Of a stretch of DNA of 64,000 nt, positions 14,822 to 43,449 are shown piece by piece. How positions within the stretch are numbered: the stretch's first letter is position 1; every line of letters begins with the position of its first letter. Origin of the DNA: an uncultured Fibrobacteria bacterium (GTDB lineage: Bacteria > Fibrobacterota > Fibrobacteria > UBA11236); NCBI GenBank assembly GCA_963716395.1, contig OY970309.1, forward strand, positions 832,001-896,000, given 5' to 3'. The notes beneath the pieces are model-generated. The model was not told the DNA's origin. It saw nothing but the letters and a program-made list of their open reading frames with translations, and made no database searches. The position numbers and the translations under genes are program-made.

Positions 14822-15131
14822 GCGTATCGTTCTGGTTACCGGATCGTAGCAGGTACGATTCGCCCCGGTTTCGCCGGAGGCCGGCTGCGGCTTGAGCGTG
14901 AACCCGCCATCCGGCGGATGGAAACCGAAACAGACGAATACAGCAATATTCAGGCCCATTTCCGAAAGCTCTACCAGCCCCGGCAAACCCCGTTGACAAG
15001 ATGTGAATAGTTATTGGAGTTAACCAATTTTATGGATTTTTAAAACCAAAATCGCCAACACATTTGAATATTTATCGAAAATCACATTTTTGTTTCAAAT
15101 CTATTTTTTCCGCGACTTGGCAAAAATCCGC

Positions 15132-15159
15132 TTGACCATATTCACAATACGGTTTTAAT
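15132..15159 (+). promoter_or_regulatory. Candidate sigma70 promoter for the teneurin-like toxin gene
   Basis: TTGACC-N16-TTTAAT in an AT-rich intergenic region about 110 nt upstream of ATG 15267. Confidence 0.35.
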
Positions 15160-15266
15160 TTCCGTCTAATCTCGGAAACGAGATCGAAATTTATTCGTGG
15201 CGGACATCACACTCGCGCGTGAGAGCCCGTCAATTTGGTTTACACAATAAACGATCGGGTTCGAGC

Positions 15267-18200
15267 ATGCGCCTTTTACCCGACCTTCGCGGGGGCTTTA
15301 ACGGCAGAAGCATAATTCCGGGAGTCGTTCTGATTACCGCGTTGATGGCGCGGGCCGGGCTCCCCGGCTGCCTCGACGGCTACGCCCTATATTCCAAGGC
15401 TCAAACCGTAATGGGTGATCGCGACAGCCTTTACTCCGGCACAATCGGCTCCAACGGCACCGTGACTCTCGGCCAGGATGCCAAGCTCATGGGTGATGTG
15501 ACGTCGCACGGCAATATCCTCTTGATGGATCGATCCACGGTCTACGGCCATGTGACTTCCGGCGGCTCGGTGACCTTACAGTCCGGCGCCCAAATCACCG
15601 GCAACACGCAACAAAACGCGTCGGTCCCGATTTGCAACTTGCCCCAGGATACTTTTTCCATCGGGTCTCAGGACATCACGATATACGCCGGTGTCACTAC
15701 GGATCTTCCGCCGGGGAATTATAAAGACGTGCATGTTTACGGAAATGGACGGTTGAAACTGCATTCCGGCACCTATGCCTTGCAATCTTTGACCACCGAT
15801 GCCGACGGCCAATTCGAGTTCGATCCCTCGGAAGGCGCTATCGAGGTGTATACCAAAGTCAATATGGCTTTCGGTGATCGCACGCAATTCAATTTCACCG
15901 GCACCGCCTCTCCCGACAAAATCGAGTTCTTCAGCCGGCAACCCAGCGCCTTGACGGTGGGGACCGACATGCAATTCCAGGGCACTTTGGTAGCGCCTTG
16001 GGCGCAGGTGCACGTTTTTTCCCGAACGACTTTTTCCGGAGCGGTGTACGCCGATTCCCTGAATTTCGAGCCCGACGTGCGCGTGCATGATGTTCCCTAT
16101 GCTTCGCTACCCGTCGTCGCGATTACCAGCCCCTCCAATGGCTTTTTGACCAAGCAGAGCACCATTCCCGTGGCCTGGACCATCAACGGCGTGAGCCAAA
16201 CCTCGCAAACCACGGAGAATCTCACCGTAGAAGGAAACAACGAGGTCATTCGCTGTTCAGATGGCGTTTGCGATTCGATCACCGTGGTTCGCGATCAAAC
16301 GCCGCCCGTCGTCAAAATCACCAGCCCGGCCAACGGATTTTACACCAATCAAACATCGGTTCCGGTGGCATGGACGGTGGATGGGGTGAATCAAACCACG
16401 CAAACGACCGAAACTCTGGTGGAAGGGGCGAACGCCATCACCCGAAGCGCGACTGATTCGGCCGGGAATACCGGGACGGCTGAAATTACTGTGACTCTCG
16501 ACACGCAACCTCCGGTGGTTCACATTACTTCTCCGGTCGATGGCGCCACCCTGGAAGACGGCAACCCGATTCAGGTCGAGTATACGGTGGATGGGCAGCC
16601 GCAAGCACCCACTCCTTTCACCTTGGTGGAAGGGGAAAATCAAATTGTGGTGACGAATACCGATGCAGCGGGAAATGTCGGCGCCGACACCATTCATGTG
16701 ACTTATATCACGAATTCCCCGACCTGGCCGACCGGAACACAGATAACCGCCACGGATATCCAGGCGTCCAGCATAACCTTGCATTGGCCGGCCCCCCCAT
16801 CCGGCCATGGAATCCTGCATTATTTGGTATACCAGGGCGACGTATTGCTCGCCACCTTGCCCGGCAACCAAACCGATTATGCGGCGACCGGTCTTCTCAT
16901 CAACACCCATTACGCCTTTACCGTCGCCGCCGTGGATACGTTGAACAACATGAGTTCCGGCGGGCCGCAAGGTTCGTTCACGACCGCCAACCAATTGCCG
17001 CCCGATCCGGCGACCATTGCCCCCTCCTTGCCGGCTGAACAGACCACCAGCATGATTTCCGAAGTCGCCTTTCTTTTCCAGGGTCCGAATGCCATTCAAA
17101 CCGGTGTGGCCGACAGCGCCATCAATGCCGTTCACCTCGCGGTTTTGCGCGGGGTAGTGCAGGACAAGCAAGGAAACCCCATTCCCGGCGTTACGGTTTC
17201 GCTGTTGGGGCATTCCGAATTCGGCAGCACGGTGACCCGGACCGACGGCGAATATGATTTGGCCCTCAACGGCGGAGGCCAAGTCACGGTGTCTTTTGCG
17301 GCCCAAAATTATTTGACCGTGGAGCGCAGCCTGCATCCGCGTTGGCAGGAATTCGATGCGGTGGATACCGTGGTCATGGTTTCTATCGACACTGCGGTCA
17401 GCCAAATCTCCCTGGCCCCGCTTTTACCCATGCAAGTCGCGCAGGGCAGCGAAGTCTCCGATTCCAGCGGCGTCCGTCAGGCCACCTTGCTGTTCCCGAC
17501 CAACACCCAAGCCACCATGACGTTGCCCGGCGGTGGCATGCAAACCCTTAGTTCCATGCACGTACGCGCCACCGAATTTACCGTGGGGCCCAACGGTCAA
17601 AAAGCCATGCCGGGAAATTTGCCTCCCAACAGCGCCTATACCTATGCCGTGGAATTTACCGTAGACGAGGCACAGGCTGCGAGCGCCACCCAGGTGCAAT
17701 TCAGCAATCCGGTTTGGAATTACGTGCAGAACTTTTTGAATATTCCCGTGGGGTACGATGTGCCTTCGGCTTACTTCGATCCGCACAAGGGGCAATGGAT
17801 TCCCACCGCAGACGGGCGGGTTATCCGCATCGCCGGCATCACCAACGGCGAAGCCGACGTGGTGGTGGATACCGACGGAACCATTGCCGCGGCGCAAAGA
17901 CTCGCCGATTTCGGAATCACCGACGAGGAAAGAACCAAACTCGCCACGCTTTATTCGCCCGGGCAAACTCTGTGGCGCGTGCCCGTTCAGCATTTCACCT
18001 CCTACGATTACAATTACCCGCCCGGGTTGCCGCCCGACGCCGCCAATCCCAATGCCGGTGATCCCGATCACGATCACTCGGGGTCTTGCGGCGACGGCGG
18101 CGGGCAGGGTGATGACGTCGTGAGCGGGTCCGACATCGATTGCCAGACCCAATCCTTAGGCGAAGACGTTGCGGTACCGGGCTTTCCCGGTCTTCACTAC

Positions 18201-21200
18201 CGCAGCGATCGCGTGCCGGCCCCGCGCTGGAACACCCTGCAAATTCATGTCAGTGATGCGTCGCTTCCGGCCAGCGTCGAATTCATCAACTTGCATGTCT
18301 TCGTGGCCGGCAGAACGTTTACCTATACCTTTCCGCCCCAGCCCAATATCGTTTTTCCCTTTACTTGGGACGGCATGGACGCTTATGGGAGGCATCTCTC
18401 CGGTCGGCAACCCTACTCGTATACCCTAGATTACGCATACCCTCTTGCCTATCAAACTCCGGTCTATTCCGGCTCGCCGTCCTGCGGTCAAAGCGGCAAT
18501 CTCGTAACCCCGTGCTTCAGTTTCGGGTTGAACGGCCTACCCAGTATTACGCCGATTCAAGCCAGGTCGATTTATTTCATGGGCGACAGTTATCAAGGCT
18601 ATTTGGGCGCGCCCGAAATCGAAGACGTGGGCCGGGGTTGGACTTTGGATTCCCATCACAGTTACGATCCGACTTCGGGCATTTTGCATCTCGGCAGCGG
18701 CCAGGATCGCTCGGTGCAAACCCTGCTCGGCGCGATTTACACTGTGGCCGGCGTCAAAGGCACCAATGGTTATAGCGGGGATGGGGGGCCGGCGCTGAAC
18801 GCCGAACTTTCCAATATCAACGATATGGACATCGGCCCCGACGGCTCCATTTACCTGGCCGAAAGAGGCTCCGACCGAATTCGTAAAATCGATCCGAACG
18901 GCAATATTTCCACCGTCGCCCAAGGACACGAATGGTATACGGTGAAAGCCGCGCCGGACGGCTCTTTGTATATGGGCGACGGAGGCAGCGGCGTAGAAGT
19001 TTGGAAGCTCTCCCCGCAAGGCCAATTATCGGTATTTGCCGGGGGCGGTTCGCCCGACTCCGGATACGGCGACGGGGGTCCCGCCACCCAGGCCAGCCTT
19101 TCCTATCCGCATAACGTCGACATCGGTCCGGATGGCAGCGTATACATCGCGGATTTATACCATAATTTGGTGCGACGCGTGACTCCGGACGGCATTATCC
19201 ATACCGTGGCCGGCGGGGGCAGCGGTTACGCCGACGGGCTCCCCGCCACTTCTGTCAATATCAGCGTAGACTGGGTTTCGGTGGCGGCCGACGGCAGCAT
19301 TTACATCGCCGACGCCGTCGGGGGTGCCATTCGCAAGGTCAATCCCGCTGGGATCATCTCCACCGTGGCCGGAAACGGCACATCCGGCACCGACGGCGAC
19401 GGAGGCCCCGCCTTGCAGGCGCAAATCGTCACCTCGCGCGTCAAGGTTTTCAATACCAAGGACGGCGGAACCCGCATTTATTTCTTTGACGAACTTAATC
19501 GCACCGTTCGTTTCATCGATGAAAACGGCATCGTCAATCGGCTGGCCGGCGGAGGAAGCGATGCCACCGACGACGGCATTCCGGTCTTGGCGGCCAATGT
19601 CAGCGAACCCCGAGGCATTGCCGTGGATCCCGACGGCAATGTTTATCTCGGCTTATTCGGCGGCCAAGGTTTGGTGCGAAAAATCATCGGGCAATTTCCC
19701 GCCTTTACCGATCAAAACCTTTCCATTCCCTCGTCCGACGGCAGTGAGGTTTATCTCTTCAGCCCCGAAGGCCGCCATTTGAAAACCTATAACGCCTATA
19801 CCGGCCAGGAATTATTGAATTTCAGTTATGACGACTTCGGTGATTTGACCCAAATCACCGACCCGTACGGCAATGCCACAAGCATCGAGAGAGATGCCAA
19901 TGGCGCGCCCCTGGCCCTTCACAACGCCTATGGGCAAAGCTTGCGACTCAATACCGACGCCGACGGCAACCTGACCCAGATTGCCTTGCCGAACAACGAC
20001 ACCCATGCGTTTACCTACACCGACGGCAATCTCATGGCCACCTACACAACGCCCAATGGCCAAGTGCATACTTTCACCTATGACGACGAGGGGCGCTTAA
20101 CCAAAGATCAGGATCCGGCCGGCGGGTTTACGACGGTGGCAAAACAGACCATGCCGGATCAAAGCTGGGTATCGAAATTGACCTCGGCCTTGGGGCGCAT
20201 CCATTCCTATGAAACCGATTTCACCCCGGATTTGAGCAAGGTCAAGGTGAACACCGATCCCGCGGGATTGGTCACCACCACCGAAACCGCAGCGGCCGGC
20301 GTTGTCATCACCGACAATCCCGACAGCACGGAAACACGCGTCGTTCTCGGGCCCAACCCGCAACTCGCTTTTCAAGGCATGGTACCCACGGTCACCCTGA
20401 CCGATTTGCCCAGCGGATTGACGCAACGAGTTTATGAAAACCAGAGTGCGACCTTGGCCGACCCGAATAATTTCTTAAGCCTTACAAGTTTCGCCGATAC
20501 CAACACCATCAACGGCCGCGCCTTCTTGACGCGCTATGATAATTCCGACCGCGAATGGCTGGCCACTTCGCCCGAAGGCCGGAGCACGGCTTCTATCGTG
20601 GATCAGTTCGGCAAGGTGGTGGAGCGCGACGTGCCCGAAGTGGACAAGATGAATTACTCCTATGATGACCGTGGCCGCCTGACCTCGATGACGCAAGGCT
20701 CGGGTGGCGACGCCCGCGTCACCGCCTTCGCCTATGACAACGCCGGCTACCTGGCTGCGATTCAAGACGCCGAGAACAGGACCTTCGCCTTCACCTATGA
20801 TGGCGCAGGACGGGTCACCCAGGAAACCATGCCTGACGGCCGCCAGGTGAATTACACCTATGACGGCGACGGCAACGTGGCCTCGATCACACCGCCGGGA
20901 AAACCCGAGCATGATTTCACCTATACCCCCATTGACCTCGAAGCAACCTATTCGCCGCCACCGCTCGGCGCCGGGCTTTGGACCACGCAAAACGGTTATA
21001 ACCTCGACCAGCAATTGCTCGACGTGAATCGGCCCGACAATCGCAACATTCATTACAACTACGACACGGCCGGAAGGGTTTCGTCCATCAACACGCCAAG
21101 CGGAGACTATACCTTCGGGTATAATTCGACGACCGGGCATTTGCAAACATTGTCTTCACCCTATTCTGAAACCCTCGGCTATAACTATGACGGATTTTTG

Positions 21201-22766
21201 CCGACTTCGGTGGCTTGGTCGGGAACCGTGAATGGAAGCGTGTCCGGGGGCTACGACGCGAATTTTTGGATGACCTCGCAAACAGTGAATGGCGCGAATG
21301 CCGTTGATTTCTCCTATGACAATGACGGCTTGCTTACCCAAGCGGGGGATCTCGCCCTATCGCGCGATGCACAGAATGGCAGAGAAACAGGAAGCTCCGT
21401 CGGCGCGGTCAGCGATCAGATTGCGTATAATGAATTCGGTGAGTTGAGCGCTTATGAAGCCGACGCCAACGGGAACCCCGTTTATCAATGTGCTTATGGC
21501 CGCGATAAATTGGGACGCATCACCACCGACACCGAAACAGTTCAGGGCGTCACGCACGTTTTCGAATACACATACGACTTGGCAGGCCGGTTGCAGCAGG
21601 TGAAAGAAGATGGCGCTGTGACGGCCACCTATTCGTATGATTCGAACGGCAATCGCCTGACTAAAGTCGATGGTTCGGGGACTACGAATGGAACCTATGA
21701 TGATCAGGACAGGCTGACCCAATATGGCAACGCGACTTATGTCTATAACAACAACGGGGATTTGCAAACCAAAACCGAAACCGGCCAGACGACCACTTAT
21801 AATTACGATGTGTTCGGAAACTTGACCGAGGTACAGTTACCGGGTGGAACCGATATTCAATACGTGATAGACGGACAGAACCGGCGAGTGGGCAAAAAGG
21901 TGAATGGCGTTTTGGTGCAGGAATTTTTATATCAGAACCAATTGAATCCGGTGGCCGAGTTGGATGGGTCGGGGAATGTGGTGGCTAAATTTGTTTACGG
22001 CAGCAAAGGGAATGTGCCGGATTTGATGATCAAGGGTGGAGTGACGTATCGGATTATTTCGGATCATCTTGGCAGCCCGAAACTTGTCATTAATTCCGCT
22101 ACGGGAGCCGTGGTGGAGCAGTTGGATTACGATGAGTTTGGGAATGTGATTGGGGACAGCAACCCCGGATTTCAACCGTTTGGGTTTGCGGGTGGGTTGT
22201 ATGACGAGGATACGAAGTTGGTGCGGTTTGGGGCAAGGGATTATGCCAGTGATATTGGCAGGTGGATTACCAAAGATCCCGCTGGACTCAATTTTGGAAT
22301 GAATCTTTATGCTTATGTTAAGAACAACCCAATGAATCGGATAGATCCTTTAGGCCTGTACGAATGTACTTATTACACTAGTACACATACGATGGTGTGC
22401 ATTTCTGATGACGGAAACAATAATATTTCGAGTAGGAATTGGACTTCAGGGAACAATGGTTCAAATTGTATTACTGGAGACTGTCAGGATAATCCAAATC
22501 ATAGCGATGAATCTTATGCAGGACCTGCACCACAAGGTCATTATACTTTAGGCCCGCCAACAGCGCCTGGTGGCGGAAGGAGGAGGATGACTCCTGACGC
22601 CGGTACAGATATGAAGGGGCGGAGTGGTATTGAGACGCATGGATGCACAAACCCGGCAACTTGTTCGGAAGGATGTTTAGCAGCAAAATCAAATAATACT
22701 AGGGATAATTTTAACAATGCGATGTCTCATGAAGAGGGTCACAATACCGTCACAGTTGTACCTTAA
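15267..22766 (+). CDS. Teneurin-like YD/RHS-repeat polymorphic toxin (~2500 aa) with C-terminal Tlde1/DUF2778-like domain
   Basis: Possible signal peptide, beta-solenoid, Ig-like repeats (PVVxITSP), FN3 (LHWPAP..YLVY..YAFTVAAVD), teneurin-like segments (VLRGVVQDKQGNPIPGV, GWTLDSHHSYD), NHL repeats (GDGGPA), YD repeats, RHS core ([20 protein letters not shown]), toxin tip GPAPQGHY..HG..SEGC; alternative GTG start at 15219. Confidence 0.92.
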   Translation: MRLLPDLRGGFNGRSIIPGVVLITALMARAGLPGCLDGYALYSKAQTVMGDRDSLYSGTIGSNGTVTLGQDAKLMGDVTSHGNILLMDRSTVYGHVTSGGSVTLQSGAQITGNTQQNASVPICNLPQDTFSIGSQDITIYAGVTTDLPPGNYKDVHVYGNGRLKLHSGTYALQSLTTDADGQFEFDPSEGAIEVYTKVNMAFGDRTQFNFTGTASPDKIEFFSRQPSALTVGTDMQFQGTLVAPWAQVHVFSRTTFSGAVYADSLNFEPDVRVHDVPYASLPVVAITSPSNGFLTKQSTIPVAWTINGVSQTSQTTENLTVEGNNEVIRCSDGVCDSITVVRDQTPPVVKITSPANGFYTNQTSVPVAWTVDGVNQTTQTTETLVEGANAITRSATDSAGNTGTAEITVTLDTQPPVVHITSPVDGATLEDGNPIQVEYTVDGQPQAPTPFTLVEGENQIVVTNTDAAGNVGADTIHVTYITNSPTWPTGTQITATDIQASSITLHWPAPPSGHGILHYLVYQGDVLLATLPGNQTDYAATGLLINTHYAFTVAAVDTLNNMSSGGPQGSFTTANQLPPDPATIAPSLPAEQTTSMISEVAFLFQGPNAIQTGVADSAINAVHLAVLRGVVQDKQGNPIPGVTVSLLGHSEFGSTVTRTDGEYDLALNGGGQVTVSFAAQNYLTVERSLHPRWQEFDAVDTVVMVSIDTAVSQISLAPLLPMQVAQGSEVSDSSGVRQATLLFPTNTQATMTLPGGGMQTLSSMHVRATEFTVGPNGQKAMPGNLPPNSAYTYAVEFTVDEAQAASATQVQFSNPVWNYVQNFLNIPVGYDVPSAYFDPHKGQWIPTADGRVIRIAGITNGEADVVVDTDGTIAAAQRLADFGITDEERTKLATLYSPGQTLWRVPVQHFTSYDYNYPPGLPPDAANPNAGDPDHDHSGSCGDGGGQGDDVVSGSDIDCQTQSLGEDVAVPGFPGLHYRSDRVPAPRWNTLQIHVSDASLPASVEFINLHVFVAGRTFTYTFPPQPNIVFPFTWDGMDAYGRHLSGRQPYSYTLDYAYPLAYQTPVYSGSPSCGQSGNLVTPCFSFGLNGLPSITPIQARSIYFMGDSYQGYLGAPEIEDVGRGWTLDSHHSYDPTSGILHLGSGQDRSVQTLLGAIYTVAGVKGTNGYSGDGGPALNAELSNINDMDIGPDGSIYLAERGSDRIRKIDPNGNISTVAQGHEWYTVKAAPDGSLYMGDGGSGVEVWKLSPQGQLSVFAGGGSPDSGYGDGGPATQASLSYPHNVDIGPDGSVYIADLYHNLVRRVTPDGIIHTVAGGGSGYADGLPATSVNISVDWVSVAADGSIYIADAVGGAIRKVNPAGIISTVAGNGTSGTDGDGGPALQAQIVTSRVKVFNTKDGGTRIYFFDELNRTVRFIDENGIVNRLAGGGSDATDDGIPVLAANVSEPRGIAVDPDGNVYLGLFGGQGLVRKIIGQFPAFTDQNLSIPSSDGSEVYLFSPEGRHLKTYNAYTGQELLNFSYDDFGDLTQITDPYGNATSIERDANGAPLALHNAYGQSLRLNTDADGNLTQIALPNNDTHAFTYTDGNLMATYTTPNGQVHTFTYDDEGRLTKDQDPAGGFTTVAKQTMPDQSWVSKLTSALGRIHSYETDFTPDLSKVKVNTDPAGLVTTTETAAAGVVITDNPDSTETRVVLGPNPQLAFQGMVPTVTLTDLPSGLTQRVYENQSATLADPNNFLSLTSFADTNTINGRAFLTRYDNSDREWLATSPEGRSTASIVDQFGKVVERDVPEVDKMNYSYDDRGRLTSMTQGSGGDARVTAFAYDNAGYLAAIQDAENRTFAFTYDGAGRVTQETMPDGRQVNYTYDGDGNVASITPPGKPEHDFTYTPIDLEATYSPPPLGAGLWTTQNGYNLDQQLLDVNRPDNRNIHYNYDTAGRVSSINTPSGDYTFGYNSTTGHLQTLSSPYSETLGYNYDGFLPTSVAWSGTVNGSVSGGYDANFWMTSQTVNGANAVDFSYDNDGLLTQAGDLALSRDAQNGRETGSSVGAVSDQIAYNEFGELSAYEADANGNPVYQCAYGRDKLGRITTDTETVQGVTHVFEYTYDLAGRLQQVKEDGAVTATYSYDSNGNRLTKVDGSGTTNGTYDDQDRLTQYGNATYVYNNNGDLQTKTETGQTTTYNYDVFGNLTEVQLPGGTDIQYVIDGQNRRVGKKVNGVLVQEFLYQNQLNPVAELDGSGNVVAKFVYGSKGNVPDLMIKGGVTYRIISDHLGSPKLVINSATGAVVEQLDYDEFGNVIGDSNPGFQPFGFAGGLYDEDTKLVRFGARDYASDIGRWITKDPAGLNFGMNLYAYVKNNPMNRIDPLGLYECTYYTSTHTMVCISDDGNNNISSRNWTSGNNGSNCITGDCQDNPNHSDESYAGPAPQGHYTLGPPTAPGGGRRRMTPDAGTDMKGRSGIETHGCTNPATCSEGCLAAKSNNTRDNFNNAMSHEEGHNTVTVVP
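20855..20969 (+). repeat. 115-bp block identical to 23523..23637
   Basis: cacctatgacggcgacggcaacg...ccaccgctcggc present in the head gene and in orphan cassette 1. Confidence 0.9.
21690..21973 (+). repeat. 284-bp YD/RHS block repeated near-identically at 24358..24641 and (last 233 bp) at 27278..27510
   Basis: Direct reading; about two substitutions versus the 24.4-kb copy. Confidence 0.92.
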
Positions 22767-22787
22767 AGGAATGCGTATTAATTGATC

Positions 22788-23354
22788 ATGAAATCCAAAA
22801 CACTTTATATAGCTCTCGGGTGGGGTTCAATACTAGCCTGCTCAGCTGGTGCCAATAAGGAAAATGATACTTCAGGTATAAAAATTTGCGAAAGATCAGA
22901 TTGCCTTACCCCGCCCACTATTCTTAGGGAAATAAATATTATGGGACCAAAGCGCGAAGTTGAGCGACTATGGGAAAGTGACTCGTTGTGGCTGATAATA
23001 TTAAAGGCTATTTCAAATGGAAGTGCGGAATGGCTAGATGTAGCAGACGCTTTGAGGCCGGGATCTGATGCTGGTTCTTCCGAGGAGTTATCGTTCGCAA
23101 TTGGAGACGCCTTGGAGTATAATGCGGAAGACATTTTAAAACGCTATGGGATGAATAAAAATGTTTGCGGAGCCCCTGATATCGACGACCCGAAATACAA
23201 CACATATGCGAAAGCGGTTCGAGCAATAAATATCAGAATTCAAAAAATACAAGCCGTAACTGATATTAAGTTAAATGAGTCGAAAGATAGCTGTTTAGGC
23301 TCTTTGAATGAATCGCTTCCGGGACTTCAGCGTTTCTTCGGGGTTAAGAAATAA
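22788..23354 (+). CDS. Putative exported or lipoprotein immunity protein for the head toxin
   Basis: AT-rich ORF directly after the toxin; N-terminal hydrophobic segment ending ILAC. Confidence 0.75.
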   Translation: MKSKTLYIALGWGSILACSAGANKENDTSGIKICERSDCLTPPTILREINIMGPKREVERLWESDSLWLIILKAISNGSAEWLDVADALRPGSDAGSSEELSFAIGDALEYNAEDILKRYGMNKNVCGAPDIDDPKYNTYAKAVRAINIRIQKIQAVTDIKLNESKDSCLGSLNESLPGLQRFFGVKK

Positions 23355-23481
23355 CTGAGGTATCCAGCTGGCCAACAGGTGAATTCACGCGCCGCAACTT
23401 CATTTATCTTCCCTGCGCTTCCGTGAGTTGTTCCCGGCCTAATTGTCGTTATAGCTTGTGTCATAGCTCGTAGATGTCTCG

Positions 23482-25356
23482 ATGACGCAAGGCACGGGTA
23501 GTGACGCCCGCGTCACCTTGTTCACCTATGACGGCGACGGCAACGTGGCCTCGATCACACCGCCGGGAAAACCCGAGCATGATTTCACCTATACCCCCAT
23601 TGACCTCGAAGCAACCTATTCGCCGCCACCGCTCGGCACCGGGCTTTGGGCCACGCAAAATGGCTACAATCTCGATCGCCAATTACTCAATGTGAACCGG
23701 CCCGATAGCCGTGACATTCATTACAACTATGACGACGCGGGCCGGGTGGCCTCGATCACCACCCCCGGCGGCGATTTCACGTTCGGCTATAATTCCATTA
23801 CGGGCCACTTGCAAACCTTGGCCTCGCCTTACGGCGAAAACCTGGCTTACAGTTATGACGGCTTTCTGCCCACGGCCGTTTCCTGGTCGGGCGCCGTCAA
23901 CGGGAGCATGGCAGTGGGATATGACGCAAATTTCTGGGTCACCACGCAAAGCGTGAACGGATCAAACCCGGTGACCTTTAGGTATGACAACGACGGCCTG
24001 CTCACTCAGGCCGGCAGTCTCAACCTGACGCGCGATGTGCATAACGGCCGATTGACCGGAAGTGCCATCGGCGTGGTCAGCGATCAACTGGCTTACAACG
24101 AATTCGGCGAAATGAGTGATTACGAGGCCGATGCCAGCGGGAACCCCGTTTACCAGTACGCTTTTGGTCGCGATAAATTGGGACGTATCACCACCGACAC
24201 CGAAACGGTTCAGGGCGTGACGCATGTAAATACTTACACCTATGATTTAGCGGGAAGGTTGACGCAAGTCAAGCGCGATGGATCGGATTCAACAAGTTAT
24301 TCCTACGACGCCAATGGGAACAGGCTGGCCAAGGTCGATGCTTCCGGAACCACAAACGGAACCTATGATGATCAGGATAGGCTGACCCAATATGGCAACG
24401 CGACTTATGTCTATAACAACAACGGGGATTTGCAAACCAAAACCGAAACCGGCCAGACGACCACTTATAATTACGATGTGTTCGGAAACTTGACCGAGGT
24501 ACAGTTACCGGGTGGAACCGATATTCAATACGTGATAGACGGACAGAACCGGCGAGTGGGCAAAAAGGTGAATGGCGTTTTGGTGCAGAAATTTTTATAT
24601 CAGAACCAATTGAATCCGGTGGCCGAGTTGGATGGGTCGGGCAATGTTGTGGCCCGATTCGTGTATGGATCTAGGTCCAATGTACCCGATCTCATGATCA
24701 AGGGTGGGGTTACGTACCGGATTATTTCGGATCATCTAGGAAGTCCGAGGTTTGTGATTAATACCGCAACAGGAGCCGTAGTACAGCAGATAGATTACGA
24801 CGAATTCGGAAACGTCACCCTCGATAGCAATCCCGGATTTCAGCCGTTTGGTTTCGCAGGTGGGTTGTATGACGAGGATACGAAGTTGGTGCGGTTTGGG
24901 GCAAGGGATTATGCGGCGGAAAGTGGGATGTGGAGCACAAAGGATCCCGTAAAGTTCGCTGGAAAAAGCCCGAACCTTTACACCTATGTTGTCAATGACC
25001 CTATAAATCGCATTGATCCAACCGGCTTGGTTGGCGCGGGATGTAAAGACAATAAGAAATGCATGTCTGATTGCTTAGACAATCAGCGCGCGGATGTGGC
25101 GTTGGCTGGTTTGGCACTCAGTTTGCCGGGCATCTCCATACCCAAGCTTGGTAGGGCTGCTGCCATAAGCGAGGGAATGGGCGGTAGCCCTTGGACTACC
25201 CCCTTAAGCGTCGCCCAGTTCTTTGTACCTGCAATCGGCCCCATGGCTCGTAATCTTGGTCGTGCTTTGAATCCTTATGCGGACTTGGCCGCCGCCTTTT
25301 TTGCAAGCTATCTCGCCACCTCGCTTGCTATCTGTGCGATTCAGTGCTCGGACTGA
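23482..25356 (+). CDS. Orphan RHS cassette 1: truncated YD shell, core and hydrophobic Cys-containing toxin tip
   Basis: Paralogous to the distal part of the head gene; new sequence after DPTG. Confidence 0.85.
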   Translation: MTQGTGSDARVTLFTYDGDGNVASITPPGKPEHDFTYTPIDLEATYSPPPLGTGLWATQNGYNLDRQLLNVNRPDSRDIHYNYDDAGRVASITTPGGDFTFGYNSITGHLQTLASPYGENLAYSYDGFLPTAVSWSGAVNGSMAVGYDANFWVTTQSVNGSNPVTFRYDNDGLLTQAGSLNLTRDVHNGRLTGSAIGVVSDQLAYNEFGEMSDYEADASGNPVYQYAFGRDKLGRITTDTETVQGVTHVNTYTYDLAGRLTQVKRDGSDSTSYSYDANGNRLAKVDASGTTNGTYDDQDRLTQYGNATYVYNNNGDLQTKTETGQTTTYNYDVFGNLTEVQLPGGTDIQYVIDGQNRRVGKKVNGVLVQKFLYQNQLNPVAELDGSGNVVARFVYGSRSNVPDLMIKGGVTYRIISDHLGSPRFVINTATGAVVQQIDYDEFGNVTLDSNPGFQPFGFAGGLYDEDTKLVRFGARDYAAESGMWSTKDPVKFAGKSPNLYTYVVNDPINRIDPTGLVGAGCKDNKKCMSDCLDNQRADVALAGLALSLPGISIPKLGRAAAISEGMGGSPWTTPLSVAQFFVPAIGPMARNLGRALNPYADLAAAFFASYLATSLAICAIQCSD

Positions 25357-25357
25357 A

Positions 25358-25753
25358 ATGTATTTGGCAGCAGTACTGATAGGGATTGTGGCGGTGGTGT
25401 TCGCCTTCAAAGCCGCAACGAGTCGCCCCAAAAATCGTGACGGACATCTGACGTGCGAGGGGATTTTAACCAGGAATGATTTGGATCTTGAGGAAATATT
25501 TTCCAAATCTTTTCCGGGTCGAGATAAAGATCGCCTATTGCACTTATGGACCGCAATCTCCGAGAAGATGGTTATCCCACCCAAAAAACTTCGGGCCGAT
25601 GACCGGGTTGCCGATTTGTGTCCCGGTTCAAAGTGGAGCGCGGTGAACGTAAGAATGGAGGACTTGACCGACTTCGTGATCAAGGAATCCGGTGGACGAG
25701 AAGTTCCGAAGGATATGAAGACGATCAGCGAGGTAGTGAACTTCCTGTTCTGA
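25358..25753 (+). CDS. Putative membrane-anchored immunity protein 1 (ACP-like C-terminal domain)
   Basis: ATG 1 nt after toxin stop; N-terminal TM; [21 protein letters not shown]. Confidence 0.7.
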
Positions 25754-25785
25754 TTGTTGGGTTATCTTCCCTGGTTCGCCATGAG

Positions 25786-26637
25786 TTATACCAGAATCAA
25801 CTGAATCCGGTGGCCGAACTCGATGGTGCGGGGAATGTTGTGGCGAGGTTTGTTTATGGCAGCAAGGGGAATGTGCCGGATTTGATGATCAAGGGCGGAT
25901 TGACGTATCGGATTATATCGGATCATTTAGGCAGCCCGAGGTTGGTAGTGAATTCCTCCGACGGCACTGTTGTGCAACGAATGTCATTCGATGAATTCGG
26001 AAATATTCTGGAAGATTCGAACCCTGGGTTCCAGCCCTTTGGATTTGCGGGTGGGTTGTATGATCAGGATACGAAACTGGTGCGGTTTGGGGCGAGGGAT
26101 TATTCTTCAGTAGATGGCCGGTGGACGAGCAAAGATCCAATTCGATTCAGAGGCGGGACAAACATTTACGTTTATGTCGAAAACGATCCGATTAATTTGA
26201 CTGATCCTAATGGTCTAGGTGGCACCGTTCATTACCCATGTTATACAAAGAAAGGGGGATCAAAAGCATGGAGAAATAATAATCCCGGAAATATTAGGGC
26301 CGGTGCAAAGGCAATTAAGCTTGGAGCGGTTGGGCAAAATGGCGGTATGGCGGTCTTCCCCACAATTGAAGCTGGAATAGAAGCGCAAAAGGCCGTATTA
26401 GCTGAAACATATGGAAACATGTCGGTTACCGATATGGTTCAGGATTACGCTCCACCTGTTGAGAATAATACTCAACAATATCTTGACAACTTGGCTTCTT
26501 TCGGTATTGATACGGCTGGAAATGTTGGTGACCAGATTGATGCACTTCAACAAGCTATGGCTCAGGAGGAGGGGTGGAAAACCGGCGATTCAATTCCAGA
26601 GCCTTCTAACGGTAACGATTGTGGGTGCGGACAATGA
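25786..26637 (+). pseudogene. Orphan RHS cassette 2: start-less RHS core plus NNPGN-motif (lysozyme-like) toxin tip
   Basis: Homology begins abruptly at [14 protein letters not shown]; DPNG junction; [20 protein letters not shown]. Confidence 0.8.
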
Positions 26638-27062
26638 AATATATATTCGCAATACTTTTATTTTACATCAATGTGTTATGTACAGAATCATATAGCGTAA
26701 AGCAAAAGATTTGTCTCGAAGGCAAAAACGAAATATTTGTTATTGTCGATTCTTCAGGTGAAAAACCAATTAATGTGAAAGTTCATGGTCTTAAAATTAG
26801 GCATCCAATTCAAGCTATTGATTCTGCATTGGGGGATGAAACGATCGGAGATTCACTTCAATACATACCTAAAGACCAAGCAAGTTGGAATTGGCTATTA
26901 AATTTAAAAAATCAAAATAAAAAAATAAAAATTTGTGGTAACTTAGAAGTCCAAATTACTGCGCATCACTACACTCCTGTACTGATTGTGGTAGATTCGA
27001 TTTTTCTTTTAAAGCCAACTTTTAAAAAAATCTGGCCGACGAAAATAAACTCAAGCCATTGA
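26634..27062 (+). CDS. Putative exported immunity protein 2
   Basis: ATGA overlap with toxin stop; signal-peptide-like [16 protein letters not shown]; very AT-rich. Confidence 0.72.
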
Positions 27063-27116
27063 CGGCATGAATAAACAACTTGTAGCAAGTTTCGAGGAAT
27101 CAATTTCGAGGTGTTT

Positions 27117-27278
27117 CCTTATGAATCCCCTCATTTCGAATAAGCGCTTGATTTTAAAAGGGTTGCAGGTGTTGCGATATTTGTAACATCTGGTTTTATG
27201 CGGCCTTGCAGGCCGCGCCAAATAAGGATTGGAAGGCGAGGAAACATCTAGGTTACCAAAATGAGGGGATTCATAAGG
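27117..27278. mobile_element. 162-bp MITE-like element or internally deleted IS with perfect 20-bp terminal inverted repeats
   Basis: CCTTATGAATCCCCTCATTT (27117-27136) and AAATGAGGGGATTCATAAGG (27259-27278); no transposase; no evident target-site duplication. Confidence 0.75.
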
Positions 27279-28457
27279 TCTATAACAACAACGGGGATTT
27301 GCAAACCAAAACCGAAACCGGCCAGACGACCACTTATAATTACGATGTGTTCGGAAACTTGACCGAGGTACAGTTACCGGGTGGAACCGATATTCAATAC
27401 GTGATAGACGGACAGAACCGGCGAGTGGGCAAAAAGGTGAATGGCGTTTTGGTGCAGGAATTTTTATATCAGAACCAATTGAATCCGGTGGCCGAGTTGG
27501 ATGGGTCGGGCAATGTTGTGGCCCGATTCGTGTATGGATCCAGGTCCAATGTACCCGATCTCATGATCAAGGGTGGGGTTACGTACCGGATTATTTCGGA
27601 TCATCTAGGAAGTCCGAGGTTTGTGATTAATACCGCAACAGGAGCCGTAGTACAGCAGATAGATTACGACGAATTCGGAAACGTCACCCTCGATAGCAAT
27701 CCCGGATTTCAGCCGTTTGGTTTCGCAGGTGGGTTGTATGACGAGGATACGAAGTTGGTGCGGTTTGGGGCAAGGGATTATGCCAGTGATATTGGCAGGT
27801 GGATTACTAGAGATCCGATTGGGTTCGCTGGAGGGTCGAATCTTTATCGATACTGTATGAATGAACCAGTAAATGTACTTGACCCAACTGGCTTACTTGT
27901 GGTATTTGCCGGGCCGAACTTTAATGCGGCTGCGGGACCATCCGGAGTTGCAGGCGGATCGGGCCCGTACTGGGATTTTTCAAATGGTTCTGGTGGAACG
28001 TATGACTACTCAGGGAAATCTACTGGTGCTAATGTAAGCGCGGGATGGGAGTTTGGGATAGGTAGAGGTTCCGCAAATGATTTTGCAGGAGACTTTAACA
28101 ATATATCCTTCTCTGGATTTGGAATTGAAGTTTCTGCTCATTTTGACAGTGATGGTAATTTTTGGGGATTCAGTGCGGGACCGAGTGAGGGTTTTGGGGT
28201 ATCCGGTTCTCAAACGAATACCGAAACTTCCTCACCTAACAGGGTGTTGAAAAAGGATTTTTGGCACCCTGAAAATGATCTCCCAGTATCGAATTCATTC
28301 AGATTTCAAAGATCGTGGGTAACATACATGGTACATAAATCGACTTTTTCAACACCCTGCTAATGCAAATGGAAAACAATCCGAAAGTACTAGTAGTAAT
28401 GGTGGAAATAATGGTGGTGATAATACTAATGGAAACAAAGGTACCAATTGTAACTAA
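27278..28457 (+). pseudogene. Orphan RHS cassette 3: start-less core plus Gly-rich toxin tip, probably frameshifted near its end
   Basis: RHS homology starts at the MITE end; DPTG junction; ORF stops at 28363 but another frame continues to TAA 28457. Confidence 0.72.
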
Positions 28458-28468
28458 AAAGGTCACTC

Positions 28469-28714
28469 ATGCGCGTAAGAATAAAATATTGGTTTGGAAT
28501 AATGGGTTTTACCGTAGTGTCCCTATTGACCGGGCTAGTTGCTTTGCGTTTTCAGCCGCTACTATTTTTGGTATTAGTTTGGATTGGGTGTTGGATTCTT
28601 TTTGTATTGGAGTTGAAATGCCCTTCATGCAAAAAGCCTGCAATTCCTAGGTGGCGAATATGGTTTCATGCAATTCCACCGAAAAAGTGCAGTAGTTGTG
28701 GATTTAAGTTCTAG
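28469..28714 (+). CDS. Putative immunity protein 3 (two TM helices plus CxxC..CxxC zinc ribbon)
   Basis: 81 aa; CPSC and CSSC; AAAGG upstream. Confidence 0.7.
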   Translation: MRVRIKYWFGIMGFTVVSLLTGLVALRFQPLLFLVLVWIGCWILFVLELKCPSCKKPAIPRWRIWFHAIPPKKCSSCGFKF

Positions 28715-28724
28715 CCGGTATTCG

Positions 28725-29201
28725 AGTAGAAATCCAATTCAGTTTTGGGGAGGGTTGAATTTATACGAATACGCGTGTGGGAACCCAGTCATCTATATCG
28801 ATCCTTTTGGCCTTTGCTGGATTTACAGACAATCGACGGAAAAATTGACGCTTGTCGACAACGAAGGCTCCGCATACGTCGGGACTGGTTATGCCGGCTA
28901 CGGGATGGGTCTTAATAACCCGTCGATGCAGAATATTCCGGATACCAGCCCTTTGTCACACGGGCAATATACGATCGGCCCCCAGCACACAAATACCACT
29001 CAAGCAGGTGTAACCTTTCCAGGCTCTATGCGACTGACTCCGAATCCGAATAATCAAATGTATGAACGTGATGGTTTCTTGATTCACGGACCACATGCTA
29101 ACGACAAACACAATTCTTCCGAAGGCTTTCCCGTTTTCAACAAGAATGTTCGAATTTGAATCTGTAATAGTGGAGACAACTGCTTCAAGGTCGTGCCATG
29201 A
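28725..29201 (+). pseudogene. Orphan cassette 4: degenerate Tlde1/DUF2778-like toxin tip
   Basis: RHS end remnant NLYEYACGNP..IDPFG; GFLIHG..SEGF (Cys replaced by Phe); premature TGA 29157-29159, read-through ends KVVP* at 29201. Confidence 0.8.
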
Positions 29202-29710
29202 AAGTCACTTGCATTCTCGCGTGCTTGGGAATCGCTTTGGCAACTATGAATTCTGCACAGGCAGATCAACACTCAACTAAAGTAGCTCCAAAGGGAGAAA
29301 CGTTTGTCGAAACAACTGCTGGAAAGTCGACAGTGCAAGTGAAGCTTAAGACACATGAAGTGCAAATCGGGAGACAAAGTGATCCTCGTCCGACTGTAAT
29401 CGAATCGAACTGCACTTACAGCAGGTACCCGTGCAGCATTGTCGATCAGGTCGACATCACGGTGGATGGTAACCCGCTCTTTGTTCAGCGATCAATATTC
29501 GCTGACCTAGCCGACTTAAATAAAGCGGAGATAAGAATAGGGGGAAAGGGGCGGGGCCTCACGCTTTATGGCGGTGATGCTTCGGAGAGCTATATCGTCA
29601 AGATCGCCTTTGATTCCACACAGATAAAGAGCCGAACCGTTTCCAGCGGTATTTCACCGGGTCACGTTTTACAAGAAACGATTTACCATCAAGATGTTGT
29701 TGGAGAGTAA
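29198..29710 (+). CDS. Putative exported immunity protein 4
   Basis: Signal peptide ending AQA; ATGA overlap with the ancestral toxin stop. Confidence 0.75.
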   Translation: MKVTCILACLGIALATMNSAQADQHSTKVAPKGETFVETTAGKSTVQVKLKTHEVQIGRQSDPRPTVIESNCTYSRYPCSIVDQVDITVDGNPLFVQRSIFADLADLNKAEIRIGGKGRGLTLYGGDASESYIVKIAFDSTQIKSRTVSSGISPGHVLQETIYHQDVVGE

Positions 29711-29720
29711 TTTCTGGCAA

Positions 29721-29910
29721 TATGGCAGCAAGGGTAATGTTCCGGATTTGATGATAAAAGGCGGGGTTATTTGCCAGATTATTTCAGACGCTGAGACAGT
29801 AATCCCGAGCGCGTTTTGATCGGGTGGCAGGAAGGTCGTTTTGAAGTGGTGGCCAGCCCGAGCATCGTCTGGGAATATGCGGCAGTAGGCAGGTGGATTT
29901 CCAAGCATCC
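29721..29910 (+). pseudogene. Degraded RHS core remnants
   Basis: Translates to [23 protein letters not shown] and EYAAVGRWISKHP, matching core [23 protein letters not shown] and [14 protein letters not shown]. Confidence 0.75.
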
Positions 29911-29942: not shown

Positions 29943-30302
29943 CTAGATGAACCGGTCCGCCGAGACTTTGAAAAGGTGGCCGAGATCCTTGGCCACGCCC
30001 TTGCTGATGGCACGCTGGTTGTTCTCGAAGTCGGAGACGCGGGCGGCCTTCACACCGCCGAGCTTCTCGCCGAGTTCAGCCTGCGACCATCCATGCGCTT
30101 CGCGCAGGTGCCTAACCCAAAGCCCCGCCTTCATGGTCGCCGAAACCTGCTTGTGCAGTTCAGTCTCGAAATATTCCACCGCCACATCTTCCTCCTTGAG
30201 GAGATAAGGGGCATAACGCCGCCGCACGTCCTGCAGGACACGGCGAGGGGTGCCGGAACGGAAGTGAAGATCAATAGAGCGCGTCTTTGTGGCTACCGAC
30301 AT
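29943..30302 (-). CDS. XRE-family HTH antitoxin (HigA-like)
   Basis: LREAHGWSQAELGEKLG..VSDFENNQRAIS; downstream of RelE-like toxin. Confidence 0.85.
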   Translation of the reverse strand: MSVATKTRSIDLHFRSGTPRRVLQDVRRRYAPYLLKEEDVAVEYFETELHKQVSATMKAGLWVRHLREAHGWSQAELGEKLGGVKAARVSDFENNQRAISKGVAKDLGHLFKVSADRFI

Positions 30303-30552
30303 AATACACCTCGATGGCGATGATCTCTTTCTGATGCTCCCAGCAGGCCACGTAGCCGTGGCTTCGCGCCAGGTGGCAGTGATACTTGTTCTTCCGGCCT
30401 TTCAGCTTGCCGAAGTTCGTCCAGCCGTTCGGGCCTGTAGGGCCGCTGGTTCTAAGCACTCCCGCCAGAGCCTCGAACCGCTGTTGAACCTCCAGGGGCA
30501 TCTTGGAAAGGCTTTTAAGGGCCGAGTTCCTGATAGTGACCCGGTACTCCAC
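30271..30552 (-). CDS. RelE/HigB-like type II toxin (probable leaderless GTG start)
   Basis: 93-aa basic protein YRVTIRNSALKSL..KLKG..YHCHL..EVYYVGSH; toxin-first gene order. Confidence 0.8.
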   Translation of the reverse strand: MEYRVTIRNSALKSLSKMPLEVQQRFEALAGVLRTSGPTGPNGWTNFGKLKGRKNKYHCHLARSHGYVACWEHQKEIIAIEVYYVGSHKDALY

Positions 30553-30559
30553 CAAAAGC

Positions 30560-30588
30560 AGTATACCCCATATCGGGGTATATGTCAA
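30560..30588 (-). promoter_or_regulatory. sigma70 promoter with overlapping operator palindrome for the TA operon
   Basis: Minus strand TTGACA-N17-TATACT; inverted repeat TATACCCC-ATATC-GGGGTATA at 30562-30582. Confidence 0.85.
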
Positions 30589-43316: not shown

Positions 43317-43449
43317 AGCGGTTTTTCCCACCGCTATTATCCCACCGGTGTCAATAGCTGCGTAGCAAAAATGCGGACGGGCCGCCCTTCTCACCCCCGA
43401 AATGGGTGCATGGCCGATGGGGGCGCATTTTTGGAGTATAATCCGGGCG

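Follow-up and report, generated by a model that had tools for sequence, protein, structure and literature searches.

A teneurin-like protein gene followed by a putative stack of displaced or reserve toxin and immunity cassettes in a Fibrobacteria genome

The window analysed here is a 64,000-nucleotide stretch of DNA from an uncultured Fibrobacteria bacterium (bases 832001-896000 of a complete 3.75-Mb single-contig genome; GC 59.8%), and our subject is the locus that it carries between positions 15267 and 29788. Taken together, our observations make it very probable that this locus encodes a bacterial teneurin-like protein (TLP), acting as a Sec-exported polymorphic toxin, together with a row of toxin/immunity cassettes that have been displaced or are kept in reserve. 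A preliminary description of the window had listed one gene of about 2500 codons (the head gene) with a partner gene, four orphan modules and a further core remnant; all of these elements were recovered, and every peptide string that it quoted was found in the head translation. The TLP class, its C-terminal toxin tips and its immunity genes are already known, and the locus is a well-preserved new example rather than a new system.

The head gene (15267..22766; all features of the locus lie on the plus strand) encodes 2499 residues from an ATG at 15267 (gene call P0001), and a longer reading frame from a GTG at 15219 (15219..22766) gives 2515 residues. When the head protein was compared by phmmer with all chains of the Protein Data Bank (PDB), the top match was 9pt5 chain A, named ‘Teneurin-like protein’ (E=0, 1120 bits, query residues 436-2383), followed by 9ifo chain A of the same name (E=0, 1116 bits); both entries are of BiTLP from Bacillus inaquosorum. 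The alignment spans Ig repeats, TTR domain, TIP insertion, FN-plug and NHL propeller and continues to the end of the shell, with residues 1281-2383 aligning to 9pt5 at 599 bits. Animal teneurins-2, -3 and -4 scored 297-331 bits in the same search, structures of type VI secretion system (T6SS) Rhs proteins 105-108 bits or less, and the C subunits TccC3 and YenC2 of toxin complex (Tc) toxins 25-32 bits, a weak similarity at the shell end. By its sequence, the head gene is a bacterial TLP. The preliminary description had called the protein teneurin-like rather than an ordinary T6SS Rhs protein, a view borne out by the Pfam teneurin domains and by the E=0 match to 9pt5 as against roughly 100 bits for T6SS Rhs. 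A reverse transfer from animals was also considered and was set aside because the bacterial TLPs score three to four times above the animal teneurins.

The domain order of the head protein follows that of the solved TLP. Specifically, Ig-like and fibronectin-III repeats (16347..16940) were matched by Big_13 (aa 377-429), Glucodextran_B (aa 364-428) and fn3 (aa 508-574, 6.2e-8), and a teneurin TTR-like domain (17127..17378) by PF25020 TTR_TEN1-4 (7.4e-23, aa 637-720, profile positions 3-86 of 86). The TIP-equivalent insertion and probable FN-plug (17379..18404) lie within an unbroken alignment to 9pt5 residues 191-986, a range that includes the FN-plug of 9pt5; TIP has no profile of its own in the libraries used, and its position was taken from this alignment, in keeping with its placement between TTR and FN-plug in TLPs (PMC13018210). 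An NHL beta-propeller, with approximate limits of 18786..19718, was recognised by PF25021 TEN_NHL (1.2e-19, 70.9 bits against a cut-off of 27.1, aa 1190-1333); NHL and SBBP repeats reach about aa 1477, and the alignment to teneurin-2 begins at aa 1139. The YD/RHS shell, up to the RHS core cleavage motif (19746..22358), matched PF25023 TEN_YD-shell (9.3e-48, 163 bits, cut-off 50), RHS_repeat in seven stretches (2.2e-37) and the whole of Rhs_assc_core (1-76 of 76, 2e-21). Two DPxGL motifs occur at aa 2353 and 2376, the last of them ending at aa 2380.

With respect to self-cleavage, the head protein was aligned with 13 relatives including P0118, a 2237-aa Bacillus protein that we take to be BiTLP. 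The G|S motif of the FN-plug (near nt 18126-18131), G954-S955 in P0001 numbering, corresponds to G723|S724 of BiTLP, and its Gly is present in all 14 aligned sequences and its Ser in 12. At the shell end, R2324, D2337, D2360 and L2364 (same numbering) correspond to R2103, D2116, D2140 and L2144 of BiTLP; the Arg and both Asp residues are kept in all 14 aligned TLPs and the Leu in 11, and L2364 is the final residue ahead of the predicted cut. The roles of these G|S, Arg, Asp and Leu residues in self-cleavage have been assigned in the solved TLP (PMC13018210). As judged from the alignment, both self-cleavage sites of the Bacillus protein are conserved in the head protein; the Cys-Cys link of BiTLP (C719-C2216) is not kept, and Asp and His stand in its place.

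The 135 residues that follow the last DPxGL (22359..22763) form the head tip, a predicted peptidoglycan toxin of the Tlde1 type (L,D-transpeptidase-like). Searched alone, the tip matched PF10908 Tlde1_dom at 4.1e-10 (40.5 bits, cut-off 30.1), and the same domain was found above its cut-off at aa 2420-2510 of the whole protein (4.6e-8); a direct sequence search against PDB chains gave no match for the tip. In Salmonella, the L,D-transpeptidase-like enzyme Tlde1a acts on the stem peptides of peptidoglycan, which it trims and exchanges, and the available text of PMC9638812 names H121, H129 and C131 as the residues it uses. The head tip retains His94 and an S-x-G-Cys element, S-E-G-Cys106.

The reading frame of the partner gene imm1 (22782/22788..23354) starts 16-22 nt past the head stop codon, with ATG 22788 as the likeliest start. 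Its product is a predicted lipoprotein, with a lipobox-like I-L-A-C behind a short basic start and a hydrophobic stretch, as seen by inspection, and neither Pfam nor NCBIfam gave a family for it. The head tip was modelled in complex with imm1, the latter taken from residue 23 of its 190-aa reading frame, and the model scored 0.89 over three runs; the best of three controls scored 0.00. Among solved complexes 51 of 78 attain this mark, as do 2 of 108 mismatched pairs. At least 98% of contacts are common to the runs, the predicted local distance difference test (pLDDT) of the partner is at least 89, and the modelled interface includes tip residues 94-98 and 101-106, the region of the catalytic His and Cys. 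This model supports binding of the tip by imm1, short of proof. Together with the Tlde1_dom match above cut-off, the model score backs, for the head pair, the earlier proposal that the locus is made of toxin/partner modules.

Downstream of imm1, and on the same strand, lie four orphan modules, in each of which a 3′ core motif is joined to a tip of its own and followed by a small partner gene, an arrangement that fits displaced modules of the Rhs type. A tblastn search of the whole 3.75-Mb genome found copies of the head core at this locus only, at 64-88% amino acid identity. The head and orphans 1-3 each have a full NCBIfam Rhs_assc_core motif (1-76 or 2-76 of 76), of which orphan 4 retains positions 42-76. 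All five partner genes start no more than 22 nt past the tip stop codon or overlap the tip, and at the N-terminus of each product lies a hydrophobic segment, a signal or a lipobox, as assigned partly by inspection. Apart from the head and orphan 4 tips, which share 32% identity over 59 aa, the tips are mutually unrelated.

Orphan 1 (23482..25356) combines 1.55 kb of shell and core (23482-25029, 1548 bp) with a 108-aa tip (25030-25353); the core is 81.6% identical to head aa 1866-2380 in protein and 81% identical over 1429 bp in DNA. Rich in Cys and strongly hydrophobic towards its C-terminus (hydrophobic segment aa 602-622), the tip had no Pfam, NCBIfam or PHROG match and was not similar to P0118. 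An in-frame ATG at 23482, which aligns with a Met within the head shell, opens 624 codons, and a shell fragment together with its tip might be expressed as a separate protein. Its partner imm2 (25358..25753), whose ATG lies 1 nt past the orphan 1 stop, is predicted to be a small membrane protein with one hydrophobic helix (mean Kyte-Doolittle hydropathy 2.36), and no Pfam or NCBIfam family matched it.

Orphan 2 (25771..26637) has a 447-bp core (25771-26217), 64-74% identical in protein to the other cores (64% to the head) and with Rhs_assc_core positions 2-76 of 76, and a 139-aa lysozyme-like tip (26218-26634). The tip matched PHROG 873 ‘endolysin’ at 1.7e-14 as well as tape-measure and tail-injection transglycosylase PHROGs. 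Its AlphaFold2 model, built from a seven-sequence alignment, had a mean pLDDT of 83.9 and a predicted template-modelling score of 0.76, the other four models scoring 54-66; the sole Foldseek match in the PDB at E<=0.001 was 7q47 (E 8.9e-4, probability 1.00, template-modelling (TM) score 0.62). The partner imm3 (26634..27062) shares an ATGA start/stop overlap with orphan 2, carries an N-terminal signal or anchor (hydrophobic segment aa 9-27) and matches DUF4431 (PF14485, 6.1e-6, 26.4 bits, cut-off 24).

Orphan 3 (27278..28363) joins a 618-bp core (27278-27895), 88-91% identical in protein to the head and orphan 1 cores (88% to the head), to a Gly-rich tip of 155 aa (27896-28360). The tip is rare, with four matches at E<=0.001 among 1.84 billion representative sequences, one of which (P0134) places it directly behind an RHS core end. 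No confident fold was obtained from AlphaFold2 (mean pLDDT 35.2 with a four-sequence alignment), and a language-model atlas returned unnamed clusters only. Its small hydrophobic partner imm4 (28363..28650), joined through a TAATG overlap, matched no Pfam family; its aa 4-31 form a hydrophobic segment (mean Kyte-Doolittle hydropathy 2.35). Orphans 1-3 are intact in the sense that their tip frames are open, their core motifs complete and their partner genes coupled.

Orphan 4 (28668..29159, natively to about 29200) retains some 35 core residues (about 100 bp; partial Rhs_assc_core at 31.3 bits, cut-off 32.5) and a 114-aa Tlde1-type tip, which matched Tlde1_dom at 1.5e-7 and PHROG 24118 at 1e-16; its one match among PDB sequences was at chance level (E 1.6). 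A Phe occupies the column of the catalytic Cys, a residue that the head tip and all four homologues (59-65% identical) retain, and an in-frame TGA (29157-29159) removes the last 13 residues, the homologues being about 14 residues longer. The frame past this TGA still encodes the C-terminus of the homologues and ends overlapping the ATG of imm5 (29198..29710), a partner with a signal peptide by inspection and no Pfam or NCBIfam match. The array closes with a tipless core remnant of 68 bp (29721..29788), 78% identical to head 21996-22063 by blastn, of which 44 bp (29721-29764) are 91% identical to orphan 2 (25855-25898).

The payload set thus comprises, by prediction, two Tlde1-type tips, one lysozyme-like tip and two membrane-associated tips, and all five payload/partner pairs look envelope-directed in their sequences. 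With payloads of this kind, the device may need to cross only the outer membrane of its target.

The core copies also carry a record of exchange among themselves. Over 741 bp of background the head and orphan 1 agree at 534 positions (72%), and set in this DNA are tracts that are identical or nearly so: head 21711-21973 with orphan 1 (262 of 263 bp), head 21741-21973 with orphan 3 (233 of 233), head 22191-22270 with orphan 3 (80 of 80) and orphan 1 24409-24914 with orphan 3 (504 of 506), with 180 bp identical in all three copies. At a 72% background, about 2e-14 exact runs of at least 115 bp would be expected. Near-exact tracts within core DNA of about 72% identity therefore point to recent gene conversion, and the mosaic structure of the core copies indicates its footprint. 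To judge from their length, the shared tracts are ample substrate for a crossover that would put an orphan tip onto the head gene. The earlier proposal of tip exchange by recombination is in this way supported indirectly. In Salmonella, recombination of the main rhs gene with an orphan has been found experimentally to activate the orphan toxin (available text of PMC3967940), and core-homology recombination has been proposed for Rhs and contact-dependent growth inhibition (CDI) orphans generally (available text of PMC3150448).

The GC profile across the modules is less uniform than the preliminary description had suggested when it reported a sharp drop after each DPxG junction. In the head gene the drop is clear, from 0.579 in the scaffold and 0.516 in the shared core to 0.439 in the tip and 0.419 in imm1; it is small in orphan 2 (core 0.483, tip 0.462) and orphan 3 (core 0.481, tip 0.455), and in orphan 1 there is none (core 0.530, tip 0.547). 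The sharpest lows fall in partner genes (imm3 0.315, imm4 0.378).

In terms of export, the head protein begins with a predicted Sec signal peptide of about 30 aa (15267..15356), identified by inspection from a basic start, a hydrophobic stretch, an A-x-A and a Cys five residues on; the hydrophobic segment covers aa 31-50 of the 2515-aa frame. An adhesin-like beta-solenoid module follows (15309..16358), matched, when searched by itself, by DUF7305 (36.4 bits, cut-off 27) and ice-binding-like in character, with weaker matches to Bactofilin and Ice_binding. A 614-aa paralogue in the same genome (locus L100, C1:2061839-2063683, plus strand) is 52% identical over head aa 31-380, matches pAdhesive_15 (8.5e-8) and DUF7305 (1.3e-14), and has a classical signal peptide before the same conserved mature N-terminus; the adhesin-like module thus also occurs as a stand-alone protein in this genome.

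The head protein has no PAAR domain by Pfam, and the window has no vgrG or chaperone gene, so that, with the leader peptide present, the marks of a T6SS-associated Rhs protein are absent. Whole-genome family searches agree with the preliminary description that the window holds no PAAR, VgrG or Tc genes, and its suggestion to look for secretion genes elsewhere turned up both T6SS and type IX secretion system (T9SS) genes away from the locus. The locus sits at 0.85 Mb of the genome, and the T6SS genes map to 3.32 Mb (TssC), 2.68 Mb (VgrG) and, for the two PAAR proteins (578 and 615 aa), 55 kb and 1.18 Mb. For the T9SS, the genome search found SprA (a 2220-aa frame) and seven Por_Secre_tail matches at E<=1e-3, two of them above the cut-off; export by this route was set aside because the head protein lacks such a tail and its C-terminus is the toxin. 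By analogy with its relatives, Sec export followed by surface display is the most likely route, as has been proposed for TLPs (PMC13018210).

The solved TLP and the shells of Rhs and Tc proteins suggest, by analogy, how the system would work. The head tip would be cleaved off and stored within the shell, and the N-terminal part would hold the protein on the cell surface. Contact with a neighbour would then release the tip into the target envelope, where it would damage peptidoglycan, and the producer would be shielded by its periplasmic or membrane immunity proteins. The orphans most likely arose by repeated replacement of the 3′ end of the head gene, the C-terminal displacement familiar from Rhs and contact-dependent growth inhibition loci, and could still be substrates for homologous recombination with it.

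Several observations weigh against this reading or parts of it. The Pfam profile for the FN-plug (FN-plug_TEN1-4, aa 1007-1062) scored 9.7e-5 and 23 bits, under its cut-off of 27.8. A Pro stands at position -2 before the conserved Cys of the leader, which does not fit the PROSITE lipobox pattern, and the Sec/SPII (signal peptidase II) lipoprotein route predicted for Gram-negative TLPs therefore lacks confirmation here. The head tip has Glu at the position of the second His of the Tlde1a motif (H129), so its activity is not assured, and the score of its complex model with imm1 could partly reflect likeness to solved Tlde1-type pairs. Orphan 4, with Phe for the catalytic Cys and a premature in-frame TGA, is by these marks a pseudogene, which makes at least part of the array a fossil. 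For orphans 1 and 3 the envelope-directed look comes solely from the hydrophobicity of tip or partner, and neither of these tips, out of the five, could be assigned to a fold or a family. The exact tracts are evidence of gene conversion and not of productive replacement of the head tip; no tip swap was observed because no close relative carries the locus (none of 11 same-genus genomes). Surface display, storage of the tip and contact-dependent release are features that we infer from relatives, and the sequencing runs listed for this material include no RNA run.

Part of this evidence also bears on what the orphans are. They might be inert remnants of past 3′-end replacements whose partners serve at most as immunity against neighbours, a reading that we consider unlikely though far from negligible. 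Orphan 4, without its catalytic Cys and with its premature stop, and the sixth module, a 68-bp stub, look like such remnants; the core pieces shrink along the array (1548 to 447/618 to about 100 to 68 bp), and neither a head-orphan recombinant nor a close relative having the locus was seen. Against this stand orphans 1-3, which keep open tips, a full Rhs_assc_core and coupled partners; the 180 bp that are exact in three copies and the pairwise tracts of up to 504 of 506 bp, which suffice amply for homologous recombination and point to its recent occurrence; and, in the available text of PMC3967940, the experimental activation of an orphan Rhs toxin through recombination in Salmonella. A stack of displaced or reserve cassettes behind a TLP gene remains our preferred reading.

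The nature of the head protein can be questioned in the same manner. That it is mainly an adhesion or kin-recognition receptor like the animal teneurins, with tips acting as addiction or identity markers, would suit its adhesin-like N-terminus, and PMC13018210 allows for a role in communication and remarks that TLPs are enriched in social bacteria. A locus with five different tips, enzyme-like or membrane-active and each with its cognate partner, fits interbacterial antagonism instead; two of the tips are predicted cell-wall enzymes, and TLP tips of other species were toxic in E. coli (PMC13018210); we regard the receptor reading as very unlikely. Still less probable in our view is an ordinary Rhs effector fired by the T6SS of this genome, which does encode TssC, VgrG and two PAAR proteins. 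T6SS Rhs loci typically contain Rhs cores and orphan arrays, and Tlde1 was first described as a T6SS effector, according to the available text of PMC9638812. What speaks against it is that the gene has no PAAR and the window no vgrG or chaperone, the T6SS genes being 0.3-2.5 Mb away, and that the scaffold scores 1120 bits to a TLP structure against some 105-108 bits to T6SS Rhs. The Sec-type leader of the head gene is likewise foreign to T6SS cargo, which is made without one. Gram-positive bacteria are not known to possess a T6SS. The solved TLP is from Bacillus, a Gram-positive genus (PMC13018210). The least probable reading, which we give almost no weight, is that of a BC-type subunit of a Tc (ABC) toxin aimed at eukaryotic hosts. 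The weak similarity of the shell end to TccC3 and YenC2 (about 25-32 bits) points that way; the tips and partners are of antibacterial, cell-wall type, and no TcB match was found in the genome (PF12256 TcdB_toxin_midN, whose positive control matched in 1 of 14 genomes), nor any TcA match (PF03538 VRP1, searched without a positive control).

Building from the window, we surveyed relatives of the head protein. Matches at E<=1e-20 were present in 12 of the 61 genomes searched, the genome of the window included, and none occurred in the 11 same-genus genomes (74-100% complete, 1.9-2.7 Mb). The sole full-length relative among the 61 genomes (genome G021, locus L019) is 51% identical and differs at its N-terminus. 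A scan of species-representative genomes gave at least 598 pattern matches, at least 542 of which encode a TLP relative. Of these at least 542 stretches the best 80 (loci L019-L098) were compared; by their record titles they come from Nitrospiraceae, Chloroflexota, Verrucomicrobia, Gemmatimonadales, Planctomycetota, Bdellovibrionales, Bacteroidota and others, lineages that extend beyond the six phyla of PMC13018210.

Orphan core fragments were found in 5 of the 51 loci among these 80 that have at least 3 kb downstream, namely L044 (two), L064 (four), L076, L077 and L085, the reading frame ahead of each fragment being short; the survey misses core fragments under about 60 residues. One extra core fragment each in L051 and L055, at a contig end, stands outside this count, as do L053, with its tandem second full-length TLP gene, and L065, in which two matches fall in one gene. 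The four-module array of the window is the longest among the best 80 loci, tied with that of L064, a Thiotrichaceae metagenome-assembled genome (MAG) in which four orphan core-plus-tip modules lie behind the TLP gene (L064:15365-26400). The two tandem full-length TLP genes of L053 are in a Blastocatellia MAG.

Invariant tips among relatives, which the preliminary description had named as telling against it, were not what we saw: the tips differ, with a mean column identity of 6% across the 72 aligned head tips, that of the window included. Most of these 72 have no family; Tlde1_dom and YkuD were each found twice, VanY once and seven other families, eCIS_core among them, once each. The eCIS_core tip probably belongs to the closest relative, G021, since P0003 carries PF13699. 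When the five tips of the window were searched by tblastn against the 80 loci, only L089 was found, matched by the two Tlde1 tips, and none of the five partners was found elsewhere in those loci.

The genes nuoL, nuoM and nuoN (GC 0.638) precede the head gene, from which nuoN is separated by an AT-rich gap of 445 bp (14822..15266, GC 0.461). Between 14700 and 30700, a consensus scan counted 14 promoter-like sites against 16.2 +/- 4.2 in shuffled sequence, and 21 terminator-like sites were counted against 19.5 +/- 3.9; both counts are uninformative. The borders of the island could not be set by synteny, as none of 15 downstream or flanking window proteins lies within 19 kb of nuoN in genomes G004 or G005; NuoN of the same-genus genomes is only about 50% identical. 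One soil-metagenome DNA run contains a fraction of 0.14 of the sampled words, and two sister runs contain almost none.

Immediately past the array, at 29943-30588 on the opposite (minus) strand, is a 118-aa HTH_3 protein (1.1e-10), overlapped by a 104-aa reading frame without a Pfam match in an arrangement that resembles a toxin-antitoxin pair. Between 30923 and 35199, four reading frames of 244-490 aa match no Pfam family at E<=0.001. Beyond them, a 2678-aa reading frame (35355-43394, minus strand) consists almost entirely of tetratricopeptide repeats (TPR_19 3.6e-54, TPR_14, TPR_16 and others).

With regard to what the locus may mean, we suggest, as a tentative proposal to which we give somewhat less than even chances, that TLPs diversify like Rhs and CDI systems, through 3′-end displacement and recombination, and that the one described here is a Sec-exported, T6SS-independent contact weapon for envelope payloads. 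If this is true, the device must breach only the outer membrane of its target, the Rhs-style mechanism of spare tips and recombination operates on a teneurin scaffold too, and the locus, with three intact spare tips for swaps, becomes a natural test bed for the unsolved delivery of TLPs. The apparently all-envelope payload set itself sets a testable constraint on the delivery route. The locus also supplies a complete, single-contig TLP example from a lineage outside the six reported phyla. Its additions are modest: an orphan array and conversion tracts on a TLP, a Tlde1-type tip with a well-modelled lipoprotein partner, and payloads of envelope type.

Bacterial TLPs have been described by Raoelijaona et al. 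(Nat Commun 2026, PMC13018210), who found them in 139 genomes of six phyla. In that account, the FN-plug/NHL/YD superfold is invariant and the N-terminal adhesion modules vary; a TIP domain is present in 96% of TLPs, and TLPs are predicted to carry Sec signals, which in Gram-negative bacteria are of SPII type. The C-terminal toxin, polymorphic and about 15 kDa in size, is cleaved and lies within the shell, and its immunity gene follows immediately downstream; of nine tips tested in E. coli, three were toxic; TLPs have no evident delivery machine; and a role in cell communication is left open, with enrichment noted in social bacteria (PMC13018210). The words ‘orphan’, ‘recombination’, ‘Tlde1’ and ‘transpeptidase’ are absent from the main text of that paper, the part covered here, and a literature search for reports on orphans behind teneurin-like genes returned only Rhs/T6SS or unrelated work.

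The locus resembles BiTLP in its sequence of domains (TTR, TIP, a probable FN-plug, NHL and YD shell), in both self-cleavage motifs, in a polymorphic tip of about 15 kDa, in the downstream immunity gene, in the predicted Sec signal and in having no evident delivery machine. It differs in that the head protein is about 40% identical to P0118, in having a DUF7305/ice-binding-like N-terminus where BiTLP has BIG domains, in a tip of Tlde1 type where that of BiTLP is membrane-active, and in the loss of the C719-C2216 link. Two further features set it apart from the systems of the TLP paper, namely the four-module orphan array and a lineage outside its six phyla, that of the Fibrobacteres by the record of the closest relative.

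As in the orphan arrays of Rhs and CDI systems (Poole et al. 2011, PMC3150448; Koskiniemi et al. 2014, PMC3967940, in the text available from both), a full-length gene comes first, the fragments behind it keep the core end with a new C-terminal toxin and an immunity gene, and core homology would permit the expressed tip to be exchanged by recombination. In the present case the carrier is a TLP with predicted Sec export rather than a T6SS-linked Rhs protein or a two-partner-secreted CdiA, and recombination is read from exact tracts.

The head and orphan 4 tips share Tlde1_dom with the Tlde1/Tldi1 pair of Salmonella, as presented in the available text of PMC9638812, together with a partner predicted to be periplasmic and, in the head tip, the His and S-x-G-Cys catalytic elements. 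They differ from that pair in that the domain is fused to a YD shell, Tlde1 being a free T6SS cargo there, in the Glu that replaces H129 in the head tip, and in partners without a detectable family. For the orphan 2 tip, the model superposes (TM 0.62) on the catalytic domain of the Enc34 endolysin of a Hafnia phage (7q47), a variant lysozyme fold according to the available text of PMC8943055. The two are 22% identical, and the phage enzyme serves lysis whereas here the domain is a polymorphic-toxin tip.

Bacterial TLPs are the ancestors of animal teneurins, which wire nervous systems. With metazoan teneurins 1-4 (6fb3, 6cmx) the head protein shares the NHL propeller, the YD shell and the TTR domain; among the 17 Pfam families found in it there are no EGF repeats, transmembrane or intracellular part, or ABD/Tox-GHH. 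The RHS cleavage motif, absent in mammalian teneurins (PMC13018210), is kept in the head protein, and its tip, in contrast to theirs, is expected to lie inside the shell.

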